A stretch of DNA of 39,643 nucleotides from Candidatus Omnitrophota bacterium (GCA_017987425.1 JAGNTT010000002.1:1-39643); one strand, 5' to 3'; shown: positions 1 through 35,771, counted from the stretch's first letter. The notes: generated by a model from the letters alone, not told the origin. Made by a program: numbers and translations.

Positions 1-3000
1 CGTTAACTGTTCCGACGACTTGCAATTTAACGGTCGGTGTTGTCGTACCGATACCCACATTGTCCGAGGTGGCCGTGTTATACACATTCGTGCCGCCGTC
101 TGTCCATCCGCCTGCCGCAACGCCTGAAGGCAATGACGTCAGTCCCGAACCATCGCCGTACAATGTCCCGTCAACTTCCAGATCGCCTTCGACATATAAT
201 TCTCCGGCTGCCGTCGCGTTAGTATTAGTTCCCGCTCCCGTCCAGATCCTCACTTCATCCTGGCGGATGTCCACCATACCTGTCGGTGTGAATGTTCCGA
301 TCCCCACAGGACCGGCCGCATAAACTTCGCCGTTCACATTGAGCAGCGCTACCGTTGCTGATGTCGTGCCGATGCCCACATTGCCGGTCGAGAATACTGC
401 CGCGGTCGTCGCGTTGGAAAATGTTGTTGTACCCGTTAACGTGTTGGCATCCGTGCCGGACTGCGTATATCCGCCCGATGTCGCGATGCCTGTTGAGGCC
501 GCGATGGCACCGGTGTTGTTGACCTGGAATTGCGATGTCGGACCGACCGCAAAAAGATTAGCGGGATTCGCCGTCGAGATACCCACGTTACCGGACGGAT
601 TGATAACCATGCGCTCGGTACCAGCGGTATCTAAACGGATATAATCTTCGTTCGCTGATTCCTCGGTTTGTACTCTTGTATTATTGTCCGCGTCCGTAAT
701 CGTTGCACCCGCCGCCAGTCCGGTCAGGCCGGAACCATTCCCCACAAAGTTCGTGGCTGTGACTGTTCCGATAACTTGCAGACTTGAAATAGGGCTCACG
801 GTCCCGATGCCGACATTACCATTTAGCACAGCCAGCGCTCCAGCCGGTGTTGATGTGCCGATACCGACGTTGCCCGCTGATGTGACAACAACAAAATTTC
901 CGCTGCCAGTTCCGGTACTGGAAATTTTAAAAGGTGCCGTCGTACCCTGTCTGACGATTTCAAACGATGCGGCGTTCGGTGTAGTTGTACCGATACCGAC
1001 CGTGTCGGTTGTCAATGTCGTATAAATATTCGTTCCGCCATCCGTCCATCCGCCTGCCGCAACGCCGGACGGCAATGAGGTCAGGCCCGAACCGTCTCCG
1101 TAAATAATTCCGTCCACTTCAAGATCGCCTTCAACATATAATTCTCCCGCCCCGTTAGCGTTCGTATTCGTACCGGCACCGGTCCAGAACCTGGAACCTG
1201 TTCCGCCGCGGACTTCAAGTAACGACACCGGAGACCAGGTTCCCACACCGACATTTCCGTTCATGACGGCCAGTCCCGCAACTGGAGCTGTCGTGCCCAG
1301 ACCGACGTTACCGGTGGCAACAATGCCCGTTGCGCCGGAAAATGTTGTCGTACCTGTCAGAGTGTTTGCGGTCGAACCGGACTGCACATATCCGCCAGAT
1401 GACGCGATGCCTGTCGTTGCCGTGACCGCTCCGGAGACGTTGACCTGGAACTGCGATGCCGAACCGACCGACAGCAATGATGCCGGCGAGTTTGTACCGA
1501 TACCGACCCGGTCGGTCGATGTCGAATTGTAAACAAAAACGCCGCTGTCGTTCCAGCCGCCGGCCGCCGCAAGACCAGTAATCCCGGAACCATCGCCGAC
1601 GAAGGATGTCGCCAAAATGGATCCGATGACCTGCAACTTCGCCGTCGGGCTCCAGGTGCCGATACCGGCGTTACCGTTCATCACCGTCAAACCACCCACA
1701 GGTGTTGTTGTACCGATACCGGTATTGCCGTCCGACGTGATGAGCAAAAGATTACCGTCCCCGGTCGCTGTTGATGACACCATCAACGGAGCTGTCCCGG
1801 CTGCGGTCTTGACGATCTCGAGCGTTGATGTCGGGGTTGTCGTCCCGATACCCACGTTGTCCGAGGTCGTTGTGTTGTACACGTTCGTGCCGCCGTCTGT
1901 CCATCCGCCTGCCGCAACGCCTGACGGTAGTGAGGTCAATCCGGAACCATCGCCGTACAATGTCCCGTCAACTTCCAGATCACCTTCCACATATAATTCT
2001 CCGGCTGCCGTCGCGTTGGTGTTCGTTCCCGCTCCGGTCCAGATTCTTACTTCATCCTGGCGGATGTCCACCATACCTGTCGGTGTAAATGTTCCGATGC
2101 CCACGGGACCAGCAGCATATACTTCACCGTTAACGTTCAATAATGCAACCGTCGTTAATGTGGTACCGATGCCCACATTACCGGTTGAGAATACTGCCGC
2201 GGTCGTCGCGTTCGAAAATGTTGTCGTACCCGTCAACGTGTTGGCGCCCGTGCCGGACTGCGTGTATCCGCCGGATGTCGCGATGCCCGTTGAGGCCGCG
2301 ATGGCGCCTGTGCTGTTGACCTGGAATTGCGATGTCGGACCGACCGCCAAAAGATTAGCGGGATTCGCCGTCGAGATACCCACGTTACCGGACGGATTGA
2401 TAACCATGCGCTCCGTACCCGCGGTGTCCAGACGGATATAATCTTCGTTCGCTGATTCCTCAGCCTGGACTCTTGTATTATTGTCTGCGTCCGTGATCGT
2501 TGCTCCGGCCGCCAGTCCGGTCAGGCCGGAACCATTCCCCACAAAGTTCGTGGCTGTGACTGTTCCGATAACTTGCAGACTTGAAATAGGGCTCACGGTC
2601 CCGATGCCGACATTACCATTTAGCACAGCCAGCGCTCCAGCCGGTGTTGATGTGCCGATACCGACGTTGCCCGCTGATGTGACAACAACAAAATTTCCGC
2701 TGCCAGTTCCGGTACTGGAAATTTTAAAAGGTGCCGTCGTACCCTGTCTGACGATTTCAAACGATGCGGCGTTCGGTGTAGTTGTACCGATACCGACCGT
2801 GTCGGTTGTCAATGTCGTATAAATATTCGTTCCGCCATCCGTCCATCCGCCTGCCGCAACGCCGGACGGCAATGAGGTCAGGCCCGAACCGTCTCCGTAA
2901 ATAATTCCGTCCACTTCAAGATCGCCTTCAACATATAATTCTCCCGCCCCGTTAGCGTTCGTATTCGTACCGGCACCGGTCCAGAACCTGGAACCTGTTC

Positions 3001-4000
3001 CGCCGCGGACTTCAAGTAACGACACCGGAGACCAGGTTCCCACACCGACATTTCCGTTCATGACGGCCAGTCCCGCAACTGGAGCTGTCGTGCCCAGACC
3101 GACGTTACCGGTGGCAACAATGCCCGTTGCGCCGGAAAATGTTGTCGTACCTGTCAGAGTGTTTGCGGTCGAACCGGACTGCACATATCCGCCAGATGAC
3201 GCGATGCCTGTCGTTGCCGTGACCGCTCCGGAGACGTTGACCTGGAACTGCGATGCCGAACCGACCGACAGCAATGATGCCGGCGAGTTTGTACCGATAC
3301 CGACCCGGTCGGTCGATGTCGAATTGTAAACAAAAACGCCGCTGTCGTTCCAGCCGCCGGCCGCCGCAAGACCAGTAATCCCGGAACCGTCACCGTAAAG
3401 CGTTCCGTCCACTTCAAAATTTCCGGTTACATAAAGATCGGACGATCCCGTGCTGTTATTGAACGTTCCGGTACCAATCAGCGCATCCCCGCCCGCCAGC
3501 TGCAATGCGGCCTGCGGCGATGTCGTGCCGATACCCACGTTACTTCCGACCAAAACTCGGTTGCCAAAAAAATTATTATCGACTTCCATGTCGTTCTGGA
3601 CATAAACATCACCGGTGCCGGCGGCAAAGTCGACTGTGCCGCCCAAACCAAAACGGGCCAATCCACCGACCACTTGGAGTTTGCCTAACGGATTGACGGT
3701 GCCCAGACCGATGTTGCCGTCAACGACCAAACCTTCTGTTTCGGAACATTCCACCAGGCCGCTGTCGATGCGGATACAGCCGCGTGCGGCGATGTTACCG
3801 ATGGAATCAATGTGGGCCTGTTCGACGCTTGCGGAATTGCGGATGGAAAATCCGGACGAACCGTCTGTCGAATCGGTGACGGCTTCTATATCAGCGGCTT
3901 GGGCAAGACTGGATGGAAAAACAAGAAGGAAGGATGTCAGAAGAGAAACGAATACCCAGAAGAAATTCTCGGTCAATTTTTTTAACTGGCTCAATAGCAT
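1..4000 (-). CDS. Giant secreted repeat protein, N-terminal 1333 codons (3' end lies beyond the left window edge)
   Basis: Absent from the supplied ORF track because it has no in-window stop. The ATG at 4000 is preceded by an in-frame TAG (4003-4001). I read the reverse-complement frame codon by codon from 4000 to about 1520 and checked 2-650 for TTA/CTA/TCA at positions = 2 mod 3; 711-1591 is covered by its base-for-base identity to 2508-3388. About 60 nt (651-710) rests on near-identity to copy 2 only. No stops were seen. The N-terminus MLLSQLKKLTENFFWVFVSLLTSFLLVFPSSLAQA/ADIE looks like a Sec signal peptide with an AXA site. The body is Gly/Thr/Val-rich, with recurring GNVGIGT(T/S)xP and GELYVEGDLEVDGxxYGDGSGLTSLPSGVAAGGWTDGG motifs typical of tail-fibre-like or surface-fibre proteins. 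Confidence 0.85.
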   Translation of the reverse strand, partial: MLLSQLKKLTENFFWVFVSLLTSFLLVFPSSLAQAADIEAVTDSTDGSSGFSIRNSASVEQAHIDSIGNIAARGCIRIDSGLVECSETEGLVVDGNIGLGTVNPLGKLQVVGGLARFGLGGTVDFAAGTGDVYVQNDMEVDNNFFGNRVLVGSNVGIGTTSPQAALQLAGGDALIGTGTFNNSTGSSDLYVTGNFEVDGTLYGDGSGITGLAAAGGWNDSGVFVYNSTSTDRVGIGTNSPASLLSVGSASQFQVNVSGAVTATTGIASSGGYVQSGSTANTLTGTTTFSGATGIVATGNVGLGTTAPVAGLAVMNGNVGVGTWSPVSLLEVRGGTGSRFWTGAGTNTNANGAGELYVEGDLEVDGIIYGDGSGLTSLPSGVAAGGWTDGGTNIYTTLTTDTVGIGTTTPNAASFEIVRQGTTAPFKISSTGTGSGNFVVVTSAGNVGIGTSTPAGALAVLNGNVGIGTVSPISSLQVIGTVTATNFVGNGSGLTGLAAGATITDADNNTRVQAEESANEDYIRLDTAGTERMVINPSGNVGISTANPANLLAVGPTSQFQVNSTGAIAASTGIATSGGYTQSGTGANTLTGTTTFSNATTAAVFSTGNVGIGTTLTTVALLNVNGEVYAAGPVGIGTFTPTGMVDIRQDEVRIWTGAGTNTNATAAGELYVEGDLEVDGTLYGDGSGLTSLPSGVAAGGWTDGGTNVYNTTTSDNVGIGTTTPTSTLEIVKTAAGTAPLMVSSTATGDGNLLLITSDGNTGIGTTTPVGGLTVMNGNAGIGTWSPTAKLQVIGSILATSFVGDGSGITGLAAAGGWNDSGVFVYNSTSTDRVGIGTNSPASLLSVGSASQFQVNVSGAVTATTGIASSGGYVQSGSTANTLTGTTTFSGATGIVATGNVGLGTTAPVAGLAVMNGNVGVGTWSPVSLLEVRGGTGSRFWTGAGTNTNANGAGELYVEGDLEVDGIIYGDGSGLTSLPSGVAAGGWTDGGTNIYTTLTTDTVGIGTTTPNAASFEIVRQGTTAPFKISSTGTGSGNFVVVTSAGNVGIGTSTPAGALAVLNGNVGIGTVSPISSLQVIGTVTATNFVGNGSGLTGLAAGATITDADNNTRVQTEESANEDYIRLDTAGTERMVINPSGNVGISTANPANLFAVGPTSQFQVNNTGAIAASTGIATSGGYTQSGTDANTLTGTTTFSNATTAAVFSTGNVGIGTTSATVALLNVNGEVYAAGPVGIGTFTPTGMVDIRQDEVRIWTGAGTNTNATAAGELYVEGDLEVDGTLYGDGSGLTSLPSGVAAGGWTDGGTNVYNTATSDNVGIGTTTPTVKLQVVGTVN
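36..3388. repeat. In-frame tandem repeat, period 1797 bp (599 codons), about 1.9 copies in the window, inside the giant CDS
   Basis: 36-1591 aligns without indels to 1833-3388 at an offset of 1797. 711-1591 matches 2508-3388 base for base in my line-by-line comparison (881 bp). 36-710 versus 1833-2507 shows scattered substitutions, roughly 5-10% by eye. Each unit contains two related sub-modules, for example 75-200 versus 1021-1150. Confidence 0.9.
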
Positions 4001-4313
4001 CTAGTGATTTGAGTATAAGTCCAATAAAATTTAGTAGTTTGAATTTTTCTAATAGCATTCTAATTGATGGATGCATGTAAACAAGTTTTGTTTGAATTAT
4101 TTTCAATGCTGACCGCTGCGAAAACATGTTTTCCCCGTCGGGTTAATTAATAGTTCATTAAATCATTAAAATTTTTTAAGAAAAATTTTAAAATCGCGAT
4201 ATTTCGAACAAAATACGAAATACAGATTGGGTTTTTCGGAACATGTAAACCGTTTGTATCGCATCAGATAGTCATTTTCCTGCGGCCCGTTCTTGCGGGG
4301 GGCTTATAACTGT

Positions 4314-6017
4314 TCAAATGGCCTCGATGCCTTGCATGCGAAGAAGAAGTTCACGTGCCAGAGGAACCGCATTATGACTGGAACCGCCGTGTTCCAGGAA
4401 CACACAGTAAACCACCGTTCGTATGTCCGAACGGGAATATCCCACAAACCACGCGTGGTTCTCCTTGCCCTGCCCAGCCTGCGCGGTCCCGGTCTTTCCG
4501 AAACTTTTAAGCCCGGGAATTTTCAGATCATGCGCAGTACCGCTGGAATCTTCGACAACGCTTCTTAAACCTTCTTCAAGCGGAGTCAATGTGGCGGGAC
4601 TTAAACGAAGCATGGACGTCTTCGCAAAACGGTCGGTTGGTTTTCCACCAATGGATAGAATAAAATGCGGCTGAACGATTTTTCCTCGGTTGGCGACAAC
4701 GGACATCATCTTGACAAGCTGCAGCGGAGTTGCCAAGATTTTTCCCTGTCCGATGGAAAAATTCAGAGTATCTCCCGTGAACCACTGACCGCGCTGTGAA
4801 CCCCGGCTTGGGACCGACCCGGGGGCTTCGGTCGGAAGATCGATGCCGGTCTTCCCCCCCATTCCCATGATGCGCGCAAATCGCCTGACCTCGTCGGACC
4901 CGACGAGAAGACCCAGATGATAAAAATATACGTTGCACGAATGGGTGATCGCCTGGATCAAATTCTCGTCGTTGTGCACCTGCGTGCATCCGAAACGGAA
5001 TTTGCCGATTGAATAATAACCGGGACAAATGAAAGTAGTATTTCGGGTGATATTTTTTGTTTCCAGAGCGGCGAGCGCGACAGGAATCTTGAACACGGAT
5101 CCCGGCGGATACTGCCCGCTTGTCGCGCGGTTTAAAAGAGGCGATGCCGCGTCCTGAAAATAATTTCCTATTTCCCTGCGGCTGTTGGGATCAACGAAAT
5201 CATTGGGGTCGAACGCGGGCGATGAGACGAGCGCGAGAATTTCGCCGTTGTCCGCGTCCATGACGATCACGGCGCCGCGTTTTCCCAGCAGCAGTTCATC
5301 GGCGGTGTCCTGAATGTCCTGGTCGATGGTAAGCGCAATGTCATTGCCCACCTTCGGATTTCTTAAGCCGAGCAGCCTGACTTCCTGCCCGCGGTTGTTG
5401 ATCTCGATCTGCCTTCCGCCGGGCTCCCCCCGCAAGTCATCGTCATAAAATTCCTCCACTCCCGTATAACCCACGATGCTTTGCAGGCTGTATCCGTAAT
5501 CTTTGAGCTGTTCGATTTTGGCCCGGCTTATTTTTCCGACATATCCCAATACATGCCCCCCCACCGCGCCCTGAGGATAAACACGCCGGTAACTTTCCTC
5601 GACCATGAGCCCGGGAAAATGGAACTTATTTTCCTCGATCTCGACGGCAACATCGCGCGGAATATCCTCGGCAATGACGATCGGAGTAAACGGAGTCAGA
5701 AATTTCCGCCTGAATCTTTTGTTAAGCTCGTCGGCGGAAACATGAAGAACATTCGACAGATATGTAAACAGGGCCCGCCGGTCGTCGATGTCCTGGGAGA
5801 CCACGGAAACGTTGAATGTCAGAATATTATCCGCGAGTACCGCGCCTTTACGGTCAAAGATTTTTCCGCGCGCGCCTTCCAAAGCAACGACACGGATGCG
5901 GTTACGCATGCTCAAATTATAGTAATACTGTCCCCGTATGACCTGCTGATAAAACAGATTAACCCCAACCGCAAGAAGCAGAAAGTAAGTTATGTATTTG
6001 ACGATTCGGATACGCAT
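4314..6017 (-). CDS. mrdA: Penicillin-binding protein 2 (elongasome transpeptidase)
   Basis: 567-aa ORF with an N-terminal TM anchor and the transpeptidase motifs SVFK (SxxK), SCN (SxN) and KTGT. It lies directly downstream of mreD. Confidence 0.9.
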   Translation of the reverse strand: MRIRIVKYITYFLLLAVGVNLFYQQVIRGQYYYNLSMRNRIRVVALEGARGKIFDRKGAVLADNILTFNVSVVSQDIDDRRALFTYLSNVLHVSADELNKRFRRKFLTPFTPIVIAEDIPRDVAVEIEENKFHFPGLMVEESYRRVYPQGAVGGHVLGYVGKISRAKIEQLKDYGYSLQSIVGYTGVEEFYDDDLRGEPGGRQIEINNRGQEVRLLGLRNPKVGNDIALTIDQDIQDTADELLLGKRGAVIVMDADNGEILALVSSPAFDPNDFVDPNSRREIGNYFQDAASPLLNRATSGQYPPGSVFKIPVALAALETKNITRNTTFICPGYYSIGKFRFGCTQVHNDENLIQAITHSCNVYFYHLGLLVGSDEVRRFARIMGMGGKTGIDLPTEAPGSVPSRGSQRGQWFTGDTLNFSIGQGKILATPLQLVKMMSVVANRGKIVQPHFILSIGGKPTDRFAKTSMLRLSPATLTPLEEGLRSVVEDSSGTAHDLKIPGLKSFGKTGTAQAGQGKENHAWFVGYSRSDIRTVVYCVFLEHGGSSHNAVPLARELLLRMQGIEAI

Positions 6018-6030
6018 GGGAATTTATAAA

Positions 6031-6090
6031 GTATCAGTGACCAGTGCCAGTGATCAGCTCAGCAATCAGTTTTCTGAACATTGTCACTAG
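6031..6090. repeat. Heptamer-based intergenic element, copy A (degenerate)
   Basis: atCAGTGACCAGTGCCAGTGATCAGCTCAGCAATCAG is a run of CAGTGAN-like heptamers, with a weak complementary segment at 6074-6089. It lies between the mreD stop and the mrdA ATG and ends 14 nt from that ATG. Confidence 0.4.
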
Positions 6091-6092
6091 GA

Positions 6093-6578
6093 TTAAAGAC
6101 GAATTTTATCCGCCAGAGTTTTTAACCTTGAAAAGACAAACGTCGCCGACAGCATGGTGATGAGAATCTCCGGAATAAAGACATATTGAAAAACGACTGT
6201 CCAATTCACATCATTGTTCATGGCATATAAAAGCCCCTGAGCGAAAACAAAAACCGACACCACCCCGCCGGTAACCATAAGCCTGGATAATTTTGAACCG
6301 GGACGATAGAAGTTGCGGCGCATAACTGTCGCGAAAAACGCGCAGCACATGAACAGAAAAATATACGTTCCGAAAACTTCGGAACTGAATGCATCTTTGA
6401 AAATGCCTGCAAAAATTGCGGCCAAAAGTCCGTAACGTATCCCCAGATACAGATTGAAAAAAACAATCAGAATCAAAAGCAAGTCCGGCTTTCCCCAGCG
6501 GCCAAAAACATCAAAGAGAAGAAACTCAATAAGAAAAAAAGTGTAGGTAAGAATGAAAATGGTGAGTAATCGTTTCAT
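6093..6578 (-). CDS. mreD: Rod shape-determining protein MreD
   Basis: 161-aa polytopic membrane protein of MreD size and hydrophobicity pattern, immediately upstream of mrdA. Confidence 0.7.
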   Translation of the reverse strand: MKRLLTIFILTYTFFLIEFLLFDVFGRWGKPDLLLILIVFFNLYLGIRYGLLAAIFAGIFKDAFSSEVFGTYIFLFMCCAFFATVMRRNFYRPGSKLSRLMVTGGVVSVFVFAQGLLYAMNNDVNWTVVFQYVFIPEILITMLSATFVFSRLKTLADKIRL

Positions 6579-6597
6579 CGCGCGGACTCAGGATGCA

Positions 6598-7029
6598 TCA
6601 TGGTTTCTTTCTTAAGAAACTCACAATCTCCGCTTCCTTTTTTCTCATACGTGTGATGTCTTTGGGCGAGTGATCGTCATAACCCAAAAGATGCAGAATA
6701 CCGTGAACCAGATACAGCTCGATCTCGGCGGAGGTCGTGGTGTCATAAGTTGCGGCATTCTGCGCGGCAACCGCCGGGCAAATGATAATTTCAGCCTGAA
6801 TCTCTTTTGTTTTTGGAGACAAACGGTAATCGAACGTCAGAATGTCAGTCGTATAATTGTGACTTAAATGGCGGGCGTTTAAAGATTTCATGCGCTGGGG
6901 AGTCACAAAAACAACGGAGAGCTCGGCCCTGGAAACTCGCAAATGCCGGAAGGTCTGAAGAACGAGCTTTTTAATCCTCGTCGGAAGGATGGGGATTTTC
7001 GTCTGAAGATTTTTTAGTGTGATGTCCAT
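6598..7029 (-). CDS. ybeY: Endoribonuclease YbeY (rRNA maturation factor)
   Basis: Contains the HGILHLLGYDH zinc-binding motif. I prefer the start at MDITLKNL (ATG 7029) over the track start at 7062. Either start overlaps the upstream HD gene (59 or 92 nt), which is an unusually long overlap. Confidence 0.85.
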   Translation of the reverse strand: MDITLKNLQTKIPILPTRIKKLVLQTFRHLRVSRAELSVVFVTPQRMKSLNARHLSHNYTTDILTFDYRLSPKTKEIQAEIIICPAVAAQNAATYDTTTSAEIELYLVHGILHLLGYDDHSPKDITRMRKKEAEIVSFLRKKP

Positions 7030-8377
7030 TGGCCTTTTTTTCCGGATATTTGACGCGGCCATGATACATGGCGGTCAAGACGCGCGAGAATGTGCCTCCA
7101 ATAACGTCGATGTCCCGGAGCGTCAAATTGCATTCATCCAGCTGGCCGTCGATGAACTTGTTGTTGATGACCTTGCGGACAACCTCATCGATCTTGACGG
7201 GCGAGTGCTCATCGAGCGCCCGCGTCGCCCCTTCGACGGAATCCGCCAGCATAACGATCGCGGTCTCCCGTGTCTGCGGTTTGGGGCCGGGATAACGGTA
7301 GTTCTCTTCATCCACCTTCTCGCCGCCCGCTTCCGCCAGGGCTCTCTGATAAAAATAAAAAATCAGCGCCGTCCCGTGATGCTGCGGAATAAAATCAATG
7401 ATCCTCTGGTTCAAGCGGTTTTTCTTGGCAAGCTCGATGCCTTCCTTCACGTGATTTAAAATCACCAGCCGGCTCATGGACGGCTCCAAGTCATCATGCT
7501 TGTTGCCCGAGACCATCTGGTTTTCGGTGAAATATTCCGGTTTGACCATCTTGCCGATGTCGTGATAATACGACCCCACACGAGCCAGAAGTCCGTGAGC
7601 GCCGATCGCGTCCGCCGCGGCTTCCGCCAAGTTGCTTACAATAAGACTGTGATGATACGTTCCCGGCGCCTCAATGATCATTCGTTTGAGAAGCGGCTGG
7701 CTCGATGAATCCGCGAGTTCCAAAAGCGTGAAATGCGTGATCTCGCCGAAAATGGTTTCAAATATTTTGAGGGTCGAGACCACCACAAAAAAACAGATGA
7801 TACCGTTGATAAAAAGCGGCTTGACGACAAGATCGAATGTCGCGGGCGTAACCACGGGATTGAGCAAGAGGGCGCACACGACCTGGATGAGCCCCACATA
7901 AATACCGGCGGCGATCAGCCTGCCGCGCGTGCGGGCACCCCTCACTGTATAAGCCCCAACGAGCCCGCTTAAAAAGAATGGGATCATCATGCTCATTGGA
8001 CCGCCGGTCATGAGCGTCACAACGGCGCTGGAAATAAATGCCATGAGAAAAACAAGCTGAAGATCATTGAATAACAGCATCGTTAACATCGTGAAACTGG
8101 CAACAGGAATGTAAAGCGGAGTGATGTGCGGATACGCGCGCAACAGGTTGGTTAAAAACATCAACAGGGCGAGCAAAAGTCCGAGGTTTACCAGAAGTCT
8201 GATGTTGGCTTTCCCGAAATAAGCCAGATGCACAGCCAGAAAAAACAAGAGAAGCGGAATGACAAGCGAATATTTGCTGATGGCAAGAACAACACCCAGA
8301 ATCAATAGGATTGAAACGCCTATGATGGCAGGCCACATGCTGCGCCGGATCGTGTTGGATTTGGCTGTCGCGTTCAT
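6971..8377 (-). CDS. 7TM-HD membrane phosphohydrolase (PgpH/YqfF-like), short form
   Basis: Multi-TM N-terminal half followed by an HD domain (HHSLIVSNLAEAAADAIG...YYHDIGK). It sits between phoH and ybeY, as in the conserved phoH-yqfF-ybeY arrangement. Confidence 0.8.
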   Translation of the reverse strand: MNATAKSNTIRRSMWPAIIGVSILLILGVVLAISKYSLVIPLLLFFLAVHLAYFGKANIRLLVNLGLLLALLMFLTNLLRAYPHITPLYIPVASFTMLTMLLFNDLQLVFLMAFISSAVVTLMTGGPMSMMIPFFLSGLVGAYTVRGARTRGRLIAAGIYVGLIQVVCALLLNPVVTPATFDLVVKPLFINGIICFFVVVSTLKIFETIFGEITHFTLLELADSSSQPLLKRMIIEAPGTYHHSLIVSNLAEAAADAIGAHGLLARVGSYYHDIGKMVKPEYFTENQMVSGNKHDDLEPSMSRLVILNHVKEGIELAKKNRLNQRIIDFIPQHHGTALIFYFYQRALAEAGGEKVDEENYRYPGPKPQTRETAIVMLADSVEGATRALDEHSPVKIDEVVRKVINNKFIDGQLDECNLTLRDIDVIGGTFSRVLTAMYHGRVKYPEKKANGHHTKKSSDENPHPSDED

Positions 8378-25061: not shown

Positions 25062-25538
25062 TTATTTCTTAAGCAGAATTTTCTGCTCAATGCGGTCTAA
25101 AAGATTCTTGACCAGCCGTTCATTTTTGTAGGAACGCATTTTCCAGAGATGAAAATCGCGGACCCGGCCGTAGCGGACATCCACCTCAACCCCGTCAAAA
25201 ATGCGGTTGACGTAAACATTCAAATGGGTCGAGGTCGAATATACAAAACGCTGGGATTTTTTGATCTTCGTAAAAAGCAGGATGTGACCTTCTTCGCCTT
25301 CGGCATAAAGCGGATTGCGTTCATACTGGGTCGGATCTACTTCCTTGACGATTTCCCAACCTTCTTCATTCATGGTCGATCGCACCACATCGAGAATATC
25401 GGCATATTCTCCGTAATAGGTGCGCTTGTACGGCTGGTCGCCCTGGATGTAATGCGGCGGATTGACTCCCGCGCATCCTGCCAAAGCGATGAGACAACCG
25501 AAGAAAAATATTTTCGTAGTCTGAAAGACATTCATCAT
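25062..25538 (-). CDS. Lipoprotein of unknown function
   Basis: I prefer the start at MMNVFQTTKIFFFGCLIALAG/CAG (signal peptide plus lipobox). The 216-aa track ORF would overlap the upstream mazG-like gene. I recognise no family. Confidence 0.6.
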   Translation of the reverse strand: MMNVFQTTKIFFFGCLIALAGCAGVNPPHYIQGDQPYKRTYYGEYADILDVVRSTMNEEGWEIVKEVDPTQYERNPLYAEGEEGHILLFTKIKKSQRFVYSTSTHLNVYVNRIFDGVEVDVRYGRVRDFHLWKMRSYKNERLVKNLLDRIEQKILLKK

Positions 25539-25563
25539 AAAAGTAGCCCTGAATAAAAGCCGG

Positions 25564-25896
25564 TTAACAGATTTTACCGTGCTTGTACGGACGGGTTTTA
25601 TTTTTTTCGGATTTCTTGGAAATCTCCGCCTGGATGTCGATGCCCAATCCTCCGCACAGATCAAAAAGACGGATAAACGCGTCGGCAATTTCTTCACGGA
25701 AGTTGGCATCATCCTTATGTCGATATCCTTCCATGGCCTCCGCGAGCTCAGTGACCACGAGCATCAATGCTTCACCGACGTTTCTTTTCTCGTCCCAAAA
25801 ACCTTTTTCTTTGGCGATGGCATGGCATTGCGCGGTCAGCTCACGTATCGTTTGGTCACTCATTTCGACTCCATTCTCTGTTGGGTGATTAGTCAT
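25564..25896 (-). CDS. MazG-like all-alpha nucleoside triphosphate pyrophosphohydrolase
   Basis: 110 aa with EXXE-type metal motifs (TELAEAMEGY, REEIADAFIRL). An AAGGAG RBS overlaps the stop of the upstream rluA-like gene. Confidence 0.65.
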   Translation of the reverse strand: MTNHPTENGVEMSDQTIRELTAQCHAIAKEKGFWDEKRNVGEALMLVVTELAEAMEGYRHKDDANFREEIADAFIRLFDLCGGLGIDIQAEISKKSEKNKTRPYKHGKIC

Positions 25897-31367: not shown

Positions 31368-32219
31368 TTATTGTTCTTTCTTTAAGACCAGTATTTCTTC
31401 CGCCCGGGATGGAAATGTCGCGGGGCGGACAAGACATTCGGTTCCGGTCGTATCGGCGCGGTTACTGACATTGACTACTGTGCCGATCAAAATCCCGTCG
31501 GGGAAAGTCGAACTGAGCTTCGAGGTCACGATTTTCTCCCCAACTTTAACACCCGCATCCTCCGGCAGGTATCTCAGACGGCAGAGACCCTGCAGCGTTC
31601 CGGTCAAAAGACCGCTCTCGCGGGAATCCTGTGTGACCGCGGCCACATTAAAATTCGGATCAGAAACAAGGATAACCTTGCTTATGTTGTCCGCAACTTC
31701 ACTAACTTTACCGACGACGCCGGCCGGATTGACCACCGGCATTCCGATCTTGATTCCTGACTTGCGGCCCTTGTCGATGATCAGCATCGCGTTCCAGTTC
31801 GTCGGATCGCGGCCGACCACAACTGCGGCAACTGTATCATAAGGAATACTGCGCTTGAAATCGAGCAGCTCGGTGAGGCGTCTGTTTTCCTCTAAAAGCT
31901 CCTTGGCGTTAGTGATCTTCGCCCAAAGGCCGCCGTTCTCCTTACGAAGTTTTGCGTACTCTTCGTATGTGACGTGATAAAACAATATTTTTTTGAATTC
32001 CTGAAACGGCCAGGCAATGAAAGCAAGCGGCCCAGTTGAACTCTCCACCACCGCATTCTTCTGAACATTTAGAAACACCGGACGGGCGAACAAAAGAAAA
32101 ACGGGAATCAGGAGCAGTAAAACATAGACAATATTTTTGGGTATTTTTTTATTCACGCCAGCGGTCTCCCCAGCAAACGCTTCGAGAGTCAAAGACCGGT
32201 ATCTAGAAAAAAAGTCCAT
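31368..32219 (-). CDS. mreC: Rod shape-determining protein MreC
   Basis: N-terminal TM segment, a coiled-coil segment, and beta-rich domains (VVGKVSEV...VILVSD, GILIGTVVNV), downstream of mreB. Confidence 0.85.
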   Translation of the reverse strand: MDFFSRYRSLTLEAFAGETAGVNKKIPKNIVYVLLLLIPVFLLFARPVFLNVQKNAVVESSTGPLAFIAWPFQEFKKILFYHVTYEEYAKLRKENGGLWAKITNAKELLEENRRLTELLDFKRSIPYDTVAAVVVGRDPTNWNAMLIIDKGRKSGIKIGMPVVNPAGVVGKVSEVADNISKVILVSDPNFNVAAVTQDSRESGLLTGTLQGLCRLRYLPEDAGVKVGEKIVTSKLSSTFPDGILIGTVVNVSNRADTTGTECLVRPATFPSRAEEILVLKKEQ

Positions 32220-32262
32220 AGTCGCCTATGGACATGTCAGAACACTATTTTCAAAAACGAAA

Positions 32263-33333
32263 TTAAAAATCGAGCTTGGTCTGAATGGTTAAACGGCGGC
32301 GCATATGCGGAGGCATATTAAGCGTCTCTCCTGTTCCCATGACCACGGCGGTCAGAGGATCGTCGGCAATATGAACTGGAAGACCTGTTTCTTCGGCAAT
32401 GCGTTTATCAAGACCGCGCAAAAGTGAACCGCCGCCGGCCATAACAATTCCATGATCGATCAAATCCGCGGCCAATTCCGGAGGCGTATGTTCCAGAGTC
32501 GACTTGGAAGCATCCACAATCGCCTGGACGGGATCGTGCAAAGCTTCACGGATCTCGACGGAAGTAATGTTGATCGTCTTGGGCAGACCGGCGATGAGGT
32601 CGCGGCCGCGCACATCCATATTCAATTCTTCTTCGAGAGGATACGCGGAGCCGATGCGGATTTTAATTTCTTCCGCAGTGCGTTCCCCGATCATCAGGTT
32701 ATATGTTTTGCGCAAATACTCGACGATGGCCATGTCCAGCTCATCACCGGCGATGCGGATGGATTTTGCGTAAACGATACCGCCGAGCGAGATGACGGCA
32801 AATTCGGTGGTACCGCCGCCGATGTCGATGATCATATTCCCGCTCGCCTCATAGACCGGCAACCCGACGCCGATCGCGGCGGCTTTCGGTTCTTCGATCA
32901 AAATAACATCGCGCGCGCCTGCATGAACGGCTGAATCCATAACGGCACGTTTTTCAACTTCGGTAATACCTGAAGGAATAGCGATGACAATCAGAGGACT
33001 GAAGAAACGGCGCGGCTGAACCTTGCGGATAAAATATTTAAGCATGGCCTCCGTGACTTCAAAATCGGAAATAACGCCGTCTTTCATGGGACGGACAGCG
33101 ATTATCGATCCCGGCGTACGACCGAGCATTTTCTTGGCTTCTTCACCGACCGCCACAACGCGGTTCGTGTCTTTTTCTATGGCCACAACCGAAGGTTCAC
33201 ACAAAACAACCCCTTCCCCTTTGACATACACCAGGGTGTTAGCAGTGCCCAAATCGATGCCCATATCTTTGGAAATTAAACCGAGTGCGGAATCAACGAT
33301 GCGTTTGAAAAGCTTCCGTAGTTGCTGAAACAT
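32263..33333 (-). CDS. mreB: Actin-like rod shape protein MreB
   Basis: 356 aa with [23 protein letters not shown] and [12 protein letters not shown] motifs. Confidence 0.95.
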
Positions 33334-34830: not shown

Positions 34831-35715
34831 TTACTTTTTCGGAACTATGTTGTCGTTTTTGCGAACCATACGGCTGGAAAACGGCGGGATAAGATCGGCT
34901 GCAGACATTTCTTCCTGCACTCTGGAGACTTTGATATCGCCCAGATAATCATCCCCGCGCATGACAGAAAGGACATCACCCTGTTTAACACCGCTCTTTG
35001 ATCCCATGTCGAAGATCACGAATTCTGTTTCTTTATCGACACTGAGGATGCGGCCTTTGGATGAATCAGATTTGCTCACGATAATTTTATCGAGTTCGAC
35101 TTCTTTGGTTGCGCTATCTTCAACGGCAGCTTCAGAGCCTTCAGCGGGTTTGGCAGCCGTTGCTGCGGCTGCAGCGGCGGCCTCGGCAGCAGCCTGATCC
35201 TGCTTGGTTTTTTCGATAGCTGCATTCGCGTCAGTCAGCTGTTTCTCGACTTCGGCAACTTTGGTTTCCAATTCCTTGACGCGTGAATCACGTGTCTGTA
35301 ATTCCTGCTGGGAGACTTTTTCTTTTTCCTGAAAATCAGCGGCTAATTTGTCTTTGTCAGCCTGGAGTGCATCTTTTTCAAGAAGGACCGTATCCAAATC
35401 CTGTTTAAGCTTGGCGTTCTCGGTCTTCATGGCTTCTTTAAGACCTTTTTCCACATCGAGTTCTTCTTCCAGACTATTAATGCGGGTGTCAGCTTCCTTG
35501 TTCTTTTCTTCAAGAACGAAGGCCTTGTTCTGCGCAACCTTAAGGTCGCCCTGCAGACGGCTGATAGAACCCTGGGCATCGTTCAATGCCGCGTCGACAG
35601 CTTTGCGTTTTTCCGTTTCTTTATTCAAGAGGAAAATGCTGATGGATGCTGTCGAAACCAGGAGCACAACGATGAGCCCTAAAAAAATCGTGATTGTCTT
35701 TCCTGCATTATTCAT
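34831..35715 (-). CDS. Membrane-anchored coiled-coil protein with an Ala-rich linker and a small C-terminal beta-rich domain
   Basis: An N-terminal TM helix (ITIFLGLIVVLLVSTASISIFLL), about 150 aa of heptad-like E/K/L/Q-rich sequence, AAAEAAAAAAATAAKPAEG, then GRILSVDKETEFVIFDMGSKSGVKQGDVLSVMRGDDYLGDIKVSRV. I prefer ATG 35715 over the TTG at 35724. I recognise no family. Confidence 0.7.
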   Translation of the reverse strand: MNNAGKTITIFLGLIVVLLVSTASISIFLLNKETEKRKAVDAALNDAQGSISRLQGDLKVAQNKAFVLEEKNKEADTRINSLEEELDVEKGLKEAMKTENAKLKQDLDTVLLEKDALQADKDKLAADFQEKEKVSQQELQTRDSRVKELETKVAEVEKQLTDANAAIEKTKQDQAAAEAAAAAAATAAKPAEGSEAAVEDSATKEVELDKIIVSKSDSSKGRILSVDKETEFVIFDMGSKSGVKQGDVLSVMRGDDYLGDIKVSRVQEEMSAADLIPPFSSRMVRKNDNIVPKK

Positions 35716-35771
35716 ATCGTTCAAATCTCCTACAGTAATATGGTGGGCAAAGCTGGTGTTGAATTCAACCT

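Follow-up and report, generated by a model that had tools for sequence, protein, structure and literature searches.

A phage-tail-fibre-like gene with a predicted export signal at a conserved but variable position behind mreD-PBP2 in Omnitrophota

What kind of protein is encoded at the left edge of a 39,643-nucleotide (nt) contig from a Candidatus Omnitrophota bacterium (GCA_017987425.1, JAGNTT010000002.1:1-39643; the whole stretch is called the window below), where the open reading frame (ORF) track lists only short plus-strand ORFs? A previous interpretation made from the DNA alone (the sequence-only reading) had proposed that the minus strand instead encodes a giant, secreted, tail-fibre-like repeat protein. 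We re-translated the minus strand of positions 1-4000 and found, in agreement with that proposal, 1,333 sense codons and 0 stops between an ATG at 4000 and base 2, with a TAG immediately upstream of the ATG. Given the local base composition, in which a stop is expected every ~25 codons, a stop-free run of this length has a chance of ~1e-24. The remaining five frames of the same segment contain 12-51 stops each, and their longest open stretch measures 302 codons. The track skips ORFs that run off the sequence and, as had been suspected, is blind to this gene because no stop lies inside the window. The window is the entire contig, and the gene is thus cut by the assembly and not by the choice of window. 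We assign 2..4000 (minus strand) to the 5' part of a chromosomal fibre gene on the basis of its open frame, its homologues and an excess of synonymous changes between internal repeat copies. These 1,333 codons represent the 5' two-thirds of the gene or less, with the 3' end located beyond the contig.

The coding strand can be read from two diverged repeat copies within the gene, which we term V segments. Among the 66 differences between the copies at 61-720 and 1858-2517, 55 fall on third codon positions of the minus frame. Codon changes counted in this frame are 51 synonymous and 7 non-synonymous, compared with 43 and 19 in the best plus frame and with 4 synonymous and 54-56 non-synonymous changes in the two other plus frames. 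The minus strand is the coding strand of 2-4000, and the V copies are under purifying selection. The homologues of the minus-frame product, 567 of which were recovered in a word-indexed search, also back this frame, and the concern that evidence might favour the plus-strand ORFs was not borne out. We rejected these PTLP-rich ORFs as genes. The longest of them (1617-2441) shows more non-synonymous change between the repeat copies, its third codon positions coincide with those of the minus frame, and it is a typical antisense shadow ORF. The guanine-plus-cytosine (GC) content climbs moderately in the fibre gene, from ~0.49 to 0.55, as expected of a coding sequence rich in Gly, Thr, Ala and Val.

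The protein starts with a signal peptide, as the sequence-only reading had noted. Residues 1-35 (3896..4000, minus strand; MLLSQLKKLTENFFWVFVSLLTSFLLVFPSSLAQA followed by AD) comprise a KK n-region, a hydrophobic core at residues 12-28 with Kyte-Doolittle values of up to 2.45, and an A-Q-A/AD cleavage motif of the AxA type. These Sec-type features predict that the fibre protein is exported. The gene caller placed the protein start 2 codons later, at a TTG, and hydropathy analysis of the 1,333 residues revealed no second transmembrane-like segment besides the signal peptide. A conserved N-terminal head follows (residues 36-94, 3719..3895, minus strand), which we delineated by alignment with homologues and which is common to 10 of them, both syntenic orthologues included. 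It harbors the only two cysteines of the 1,333 residues, Cys75 and Cys85, in the motif KGC[IV]R[IV]D…EC; this pair is kept in 7 of 11 sequences and deleted in the other 4. A unique region of ~200 residues with two cysteines had been described for this part of the protein. The cysteine count and the position outside the super-repeat are correct, but the region is not unique throughout, as the GNxGxGT and YGDGSG modules seen further downstream already begin at residue 95.

From this residue to the contig edge, the protein is built from short glycine-rich modules. The window protein contains 16 GN[VI]G[IL]GT-type, 8 [YV]G[DN]GSG[LI]T, 6 GGW[TN]D[GS]G and 4 ELYVEGDLEVDG motifs, as well as 20 motifs of the form [VIL]G[IVL][GS]T..P, and its composition is led by Gly (230 residues) and Thr (203), then Ala, Val, Ser and Asn. 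The single-copy N-proximal modules (approximately residues 95-201, 3396..3718, minus strand) include the first GNIGLGT and a SNVGIGT, and in our motif map the next segment opens with a YGDGSGIT at residue 202. Here a super-repeat of 599 residues begins, with 72% self-identity of the protein at an offset of 599 residues and 75% self-identity of the DNA at an offset of 1,797 nt; motif map and self-identity together confirm the super-repeat organization reported earlier. DNA self-comparison divides the array, all on the minus strand, into segment R of unit 1 (2518..3395, matching 721-1598), segment V of unit 1 (1858..2517), a segment J that joins unit 1 to unit 2 and occurs once in the window (1599..1857), segment R of unit 2 (721..1598) and segment V of unit 2 (2..720). 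Positions 721-1580 equal 2518-3377 exactly (860 nt, 100% identity), the V copies are ~90% identical, and DNA upstream of ~3395 resembles nothing 1,797 nt away from it. At the very edge of the contig, the last ~30 nt of unit 2 diverge from unit 1, and the last 10 residues (…TTTPTVKLQVVGTVN) depart from their counterparts in unit 1 (…TTTPTSTLEIVKTAAG). The array thus extends for ~1.9 units and then gives way to different sequence that is still stalk-like. The sequence-only reading had placed the edge inside the repeat array, which holds for the stalk character of the sequence but not for the repeat itself. Its statement that the gene could be far larger than 4 kb appears reasonable, as complete genes at the same locus encode 1,062, 1,677 and 4,029 residues, and family members reach 5,098 residues.

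To which proteins is this stalk related? Pfam and NCBIfam scans of the 1,333 residues returned noise only. A HMMER scan of 1.84 billion representatives, in contrast, yielded 7,568 matches at E<=1e-3, 1,345 at E<=1e-10 and 199 at E<=1e-30, defining a large fibre family with 7,568 cluster representatives for whose stalk there is no Pfam model. In the PHROG collection, the protein matches phrog_9942, annotated 'tail fiber protein' (3.4e-14), and phrog_18345 (7e-5). Single-sequence searches of the PDB with the window protein and two relatives recovered only fibre structures from Bdellovibrio, at E ~1e-3. We then used a profile composed of one stalk unit and 29 homologous sequences, which matched the mosaic adhesive trimer (MAT) structures 8OND (Bd2133, 1.8e-13), 8OML (1.1e-5), 8OJN (3.8e-5) and 8OL4 (1.5e-4). 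Beyond these four, no PDB entry scored below 0.05 with this profile, the next being at 0.07. An AlphaFold2 monomer model of stalk unit 495-810, calculated from a 30-sequence alignment, has a predicted local distance difference test score (pLDDT) of 57.5 and a predicted template-modelling score (pTM) of 0.29. At the level of sequence, the stalk is homologous to MAT stalks and to phage tail fibres.

The family is not confined to one domain architecture. Some relatives carry a Peptidase_S74 domain (P0006, PF13884, and several others), others pectate-lyase (PF12708) or laminin-G (PF13385) domains, and a paralogue-level relative, P0003, has YadA-head repeats. P0003 (1,911 residues) is encoded beside a second fibre of 2,080 residues on a 474-kb contig (L014, 2912-20545), where the two fibre genes lie downstream of several HEPN/nucleotidyltransferase toxin-antitoxin pairs. 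A scan of IMG/VR identified three viral contigs with stalk relatives. On one of them (L017, IMGVR_UViG_3300033067_000568, 1505-7824), a stalk relative of 767 residues follows a protein with a T7-like tail-fibre N-domain and a pectin-lyase tailspike, and the stalk modules are thus common to phages and bacterial chromosomes. The earlier description of a secreted, tail-fibre-like repeat protein is supported by the signal peptide, the PHROG match, the MAT structures and this relative in a phage tail-fibre gene cluster.

The 3' end of the window gene is missing, and we therefore analyzed the C-termini of relatives. In a survey of ~190 homologues, tips of ~105 residues were found, always at the very end of the protein: type A (P0021 type) in 11 members, type B (P0164 type) in 14 and type C (P0004 type) in 20; some other homologues end in a Cys-rich or otherwise different sequence. 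Tip A is found in the relatives nearest to the window protein (P0002, P0168, P0174), and the two full-length syntenic orthologues differ in their tips, P0021 ending in type A and P0164 in type B. A structural model of tip A (pLDDT 84, pTM 0.75, core above 90) matches phage fibre and spike proteins by fold, with E values of 2e-3 to 1e-2 and a probability of ~1.0. The PDB matches include 6O38 ('Structure of a chaperone-substrate complex'), the tailspike depolymerase 24QJ, CBA120 TSP4 and phage baseplate and capsid spike proteins. In addition, the model matches 192 predicted viral structures at E<=1e-3, and many of these bear names such as tail fibre, minor tail or pectate-lyase tailspike. Eight of the 11 tip A sequences weakly match PF25692 (Phage_depo_C, a phage depolymerase C-terminal beta-sandwich), and a tip A profile searched against PDB sequences produced chance-level matches to ribosomal protein L6 only. 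The model thus identifies tip A as a beta-sandwich resembling phage receptor-binding domains.

We compared the surroundings of the fibre gene with those in related genomes. GroEL from the window is 83-86% identical to Candidatus Omnitrophica/Omnitrophota proteins, with no other phylum among the named matches. Two conserved upstream neighbours, identified with Pfam, define the locus: PBP2/mrdA (4314-6017, minus strand) and mreD (6093-6578, minus strand). The same mreD-PBP2 order is present in the sequences L008, L013, L016, L020/L021 and L023 and in one Joint Genome Institute (JGI) contig, and in at least five related genomes the fibre gene follows directly. In an Omnitrophica metagenome-assembled genome (MAG; L013, GCA_015233335.1) and in L016, an ENA/JGI/NCBI scaffold, the entire order HisRS-AspRS-LysM-PhoH-HD-YbeY-MreD-PBP2-fibre is retained, and the flanking proteins share 41-81% identity with those of the window. 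L013 encodes a complete fibre of 1,677 residues (P0021) that aligns colinearly with the window protein, starting at the signal peptide, and L016 one of 4,029 residues (P0164). Downstream of these two fibre genes, we found no conserved gene, such as a chaperone or secretion partner; in L016, a small ORF and then TPR genes follow, all of them non-phage.

The stretches fetched for L020/L021 and L023 contain PhoH-HD-YbeY-MreD-PBP2. In L020/L021, a close relative with 93% GroEL identity, PBP2 is followed by a mini-fibre of 348 residues (P0174) and then by a fibre of at least 1,082 residues that is cut by the contig end and whose N-terminus is 66% identical to that of the window protein. The mini-fibre has a signal peptide and a head, then a single module and tip A; the second fibre gene starts 33 nt after it, and the two heads are near-identical (both genes: L020, 5001-9325, JGI Ga0209726_10000050, and L021). 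The mini-fibre may be genuine, or it may stem from a collapsed path in the assembly. Three consecutive fibre-type ORFs of 1,062, 117 and 3,208 residues follow PBP2 in L023 (5001-13189), and the fragment-like 117-residue ORF suggests recombination or decay within the locus. L008 encodes a PBP2 78% identical to that of the window, and its contig ends inside the fibre gene. The position of the fibre gene is conserved, while its length, copy number and tip vary. No rodA lies behind PBP2, a slot taken by the fibre gene in the window as well as in L013, L016, L020 and L023. Between PBP2 and the fibre gene lies an AT-rich spacer of 313 nt (4001..4313, minus strand, read directly from the sequence), which is unusually long, its counterpart measuring ~115-370 nt in relatives. 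A consensus scan of its coding strand detected no sigma-70 site or terminator, and the spacer contains no obvious Shine-Dalgarno sequence. It presumably holds the fibre gene's own promoter.

The closest structurally characterized counterparts are found in a bacterial predator. Bdellovibrio MAT proteins contain a signal peptide, a conserved N-domain of ~130 residues and a trimeric beta-helix stalk with the capping-loop consensus V-G-G/N-x-x-x-P-x-x-x-L; they end in an S74 chaperone or in diverse adhesive domains, and the predator exposes these fibres on its cells and leaves them in its prey (Caulton et al. 2024, PMC10769870). Like Bd2133 (8OND), Bd3182 and Bd1334, the window gene is a chromosomal bacterial gene for a protein with a signal peptide and a long stalk. 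…GNVGIGTxAPxxxLxV… stalk modules occur in both, and MAT structures were the only significant PDB matches. The C-terminal tips of our family, as seen in relatives, are likewise modular ('mosaic') and come with or without an S74 chaperone, and the hosts in both cases are predators or suspected predators or parasites. The two groups differ in phylum (Omnitrophota and Bdellovibrionota) and in size, MAT proteins having roughly 1,000 residues, whereas the window gene encodes at least 1,333 and its orthologues up to 4,029. The recent 599-residue tandem duplication, the extra modules (ELYVEGDLEVDG…YGDGSGLT…GGWTDGG) and the fixed position after mreD-PBP2 also set the window gene apart, the proline spacing of its motif is one residue off the published capping-loop consensus, and tips A, B and C of its relatives have no sequence match to the solved MAT tips. 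A Bd2133 fragment rebuilt from the PDB alignment, used as a query for full-length MAT proteins, gave no matches.

Phage tail fibres share other features with the window protein: its stalk modules match PHROG tail-fibre profiles and occur in a viral tail gene cluster, tip A of its relatives is a beta-sandwich of the kind seen in the distal domains of phage fibres and tailspikes, and both combine a repetitive stalk with an exchangeable receptor-binding tip. Unlike them, the window gene encodes a Sec signal peptide, lies in a housekeeping neighbourhood without phage genes and is much longer than most. It also lacks a virion-attachment N-domain, such as the T7-like N-domain of the neighbouring protein in L017. 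Trimeric autotransporter adhesins of the YadA family are long, repetitive, exported fibres as well, and P0003 carries YadA-head repeats. Their stalk chemistry is different, however, and neither the window protein nor its complete orthologues, P0021 and P0164, gave a Pfam match to a YadA anchor or head. By the same method, no S74 domain was detected in the 1,333 residues present, in P0021 or in P0164. A further class of large Omnitrophota proteins spans 10,000-147,000 residues and combines numerous transmembrane helices with domains of enzyme, dockerin or TSP3 type (Seymour et al. 2023, PMC10066038; West-Roberts et al. 2023, bioRxiv 10.1101/2023.11.21.568195; Nielsen & Lui 2026, bioRxiv 10.64898/2026.06.07.730766). 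These giants come from the same phylum, are large, repetitive and exported, break short-read assemblies and have been proposed to contact host cells. The window protein, in contrast, has only a signal peptide and tail-fibre-type modules, Pfam detects no enzyme, dockerin or TSP3 domain in its 1,333 residues, its complete orthologues have 1,062-4,029 residues, and the range at the locus is 348-4,029. Nothing points to the class of at least 10,000 residues for the fibre gene. The fibre class is not among the architectures described in the three reports, and a full-text literature search returned no paper linking tail-fibre-like fibres to Omnitrophota.

Together, these comparisons lead us to a reading that we hold to be probable, with some reservation: the window gene would encode an exported, modular, phage-tail-fibre-like surface fibre, probably trimeric, whose missing tip may bind target cells. 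The signal peptide would carry the protein across the inner membrane, and the fibre would reach the cell surface by a separate, putative route. The Gly/Thr/Asn/Val-rich modules (…ERMxI…GNVGIGTxxPxxxLxV… and …ELYVEGDLEVDGxxYGDGSGLT…GGWTDGGTNVY…) may form a long stalk, probably trimeric and beta-helical, with module number setting stalk length and the 599-residue tandem duplication representing a recent lengthening. A small C-terminal tip, in the closest relatives a predicted beta-sandwich of ~105 residues, would bind a surface structure on another cell, and recombination among modules together with tip exchange at a fixed locus may generate diversity of length and specificity. Trimer formation, passage through the outer membrane, surface display and cell attachment are steps that we infer by analogy. 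Omnitrophota have been inferred to be host-dependent or predatory nanobacteria (PMC10066038), and a role in attachment would fit this lifestyle. We retain the adhesion or predation-type structure suggested by the sequence-only reading as a hypothesis.

Several observations weigh against this reading. No secretion or anchoring genes adjoin the fibre gene, the neighbouring secretion or assembly genes that it had been suggested to look for are missing beside it, and we found no route for crossing the outer membrane. The monomer model of the stalk is poor, which is expected of an obligate intertwined trimer, and the putative beta-helical trimer is deduced from sequence homology. The likeness to MAT proteins concerns the stalk, and we do not file the window protein as a member of the MAT family. 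Its own tip, total length and any S74 domain lie beyond the contig end. Free-living Cyanobacteria, Moorena among them, have family members too, and belonging to the family does not imply predation. The main rival explanation, which we regard as unlikely though worth serious attention, draws in part on this same distribution and holds that the fibre is not a cell-cell adhesin. Instead, it could have a structural role, coating the cell surface or serving as a spacer, or it could bind or break down polysaccharide in the environment or the matrix of a biofilm. Its tip would then work in the manner of a phage depolymerase's distal beta-sandwich and not as a binder of host or prey receptors. The weak PF25692 matches of tip A, its fold similarity to tailspike depolymerases, the pectate-lyase or laminin-G domains of some relatives and the location of the gene next to cell-wall elongation genes are all in line with such a function. 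We found no catalytic domain in the 1,333 residues, in P0021 or in P0164, however, all relatives of known structure are adhesive fibres from a predator, and exchange of tips at a single locus is characteristic of receptor-binding proteins. The phage-like features could also be taken literally, the gene being a true viral tail fibre of a prophage, tailocin or other mobile element within a bacterial contig. PHROG tail-fibre families, the receptor-binding protein fold of the tip and the stalk modules on viral contigs would agree with this. Yet the 38 kb upstream are all housekeeping and contain no phage genes, the fibre gene follows mreD-PBP2 in those related genomes with recognizably homologous flanking proteins, and the rise in GC content is only moderate and of the kind expected from the amino acid composition. 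To our knowledge, virion tail fibres carry no Sec signal peptide, whereas the window protein has one. Synteny and signal peptide together make a prophage origin very improbable. The sequence-only reading had regarded the gene as the only non-housekeeping cargo in a core-genome region; the rest of the region is indeed housekeeping, but a gene that at least five related genomes carry in the corresponding place is not foreign cargo.

It may also be asked whether the tandem duplication, and with it the length of the stalk, is real. The gene could be genuine and the near-identical 599-residue duplication wholly or partly an assembly artefact, produced by loop traversal or a mix of strains, in which case the true repeat number would differ. 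The exact 860-nt repeat exceeds the length of short reads, and the mini-fibre of L020/L021 could be a collapsed path. Eight further contigs, from related species or from assemblies made independently, end inside the gene, several of them exactly at repeat borders. An exact-sequence look-up of the neighbouring PBP2 found 20 contigs that carry the protein; six of these were listed, and all six end inside the fibre gene. The same is true for contigs of three related organisms (L008, L020/L021 and a 35.7-kb JGI contig); the last of these, from a strain with 94% GroEL identity, ends 407 residues into the gene. We also sought the lost 3' end, or an intact copy among close relatives, but the six contigs listed by the PBP2 look-up and the close relatives from a genome-contig scan are all truncated, as is the L020 contig, the only find of a JGI metagenome scan. 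Three Logan contigs end at ~2505, exactly where the identical segment meets the 90%-identical one. Contig ends at this R/V border are what a de Bruijn assembler is expected to give at a true repeat with two different continuations. Moreover, the independent NCBI MAG contig L001 (GCA_020050275.1) matches the window from 12000 to 1416 at 99.9% identity, spans the J-to-R junction from unit 1 into unit 2 and ends 165 nt later, and the tandem duplication is thus backed by a second assembly. The V copies differ mostly synonymously, as real paralogous copies under selection do. An artefact accordingly seems quite unlikely to us. The copy number and the 100% identity of R are uncertain, as collapse to a consensus could account for part of this identity.

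The rest of the window is of ordinary content. All genes called between 4314 and 39633 lie on the minus strand, and all identified ones have housekeeping functions. In order, they encode IleRS, DksA, LspA, Lgt, RluD, a MurA/AroA-like protein, MreB, MreC, an ABC transporter and YceI; a mechanosensitive-channel protein, PilZ, UvrB, CoaX, GroEL, IMPDH, GuaA and DnaE; and HisRS, AspRS, LysM, PhoH, 7TM-HD, YbeY, MreD and PBP2. The mreB-mreC pair (31368-33333) is located ~25 kb from mreD-PBP2 (4314-6578). As called from the first ATG, the 7TM-HD gene (6971-8377) and ybeY (6598-7062) overlap by ~90 nt; gene calls in other assemblies give a YbeY of 143 residues, and the real overlap is thus ~60 nt. 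Two minus-strand ORFs, at 25062-25712 (216 residues) and 34831-35724 (297 residues), have no Pfam match at E<=1e-5. Rfam and tRNA scans of the window found nothing.

Omnitrophota are widespread and mostly uncultured, and attention has so far been directed to their proteins of 10,000-147,000 residues. The fibre gene represents a second, more tractable class of predicted surface protein in this phylum, with a stalk homologous to that of the adhesive fibres Bdellovibrio uses on prey, a fixed position, a length of 348-4,029 residues and a varying tip. It systematically breaks short-read assemblies, and such genes are consequently under-represented and truncated in MAG catalogues. A protein of this type is not surprising in itself, but the conserved and at the same time hypervariable locus provides a useful lead for host recognition. 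We offer, as a tentative and still doubtful idea, that the site after mreD-PBP2 may be a dedicated, fast-evolving 'host-range locus' of this Omnitrophota clade, at which one to three exported fibres, with lengths altered by module duplication and tips exchanged with other fibres and phages, would set the cells to which these host-dependent, ultra-small bacteria attach. If receptor binders, the tips could be expressed as bait for host cells. If the host-range locus is true, it would represent an independent, phage-like solution that parallels the MAT fibres of Bdellovibrio, in a phylum for which there are almost no experimental handles.

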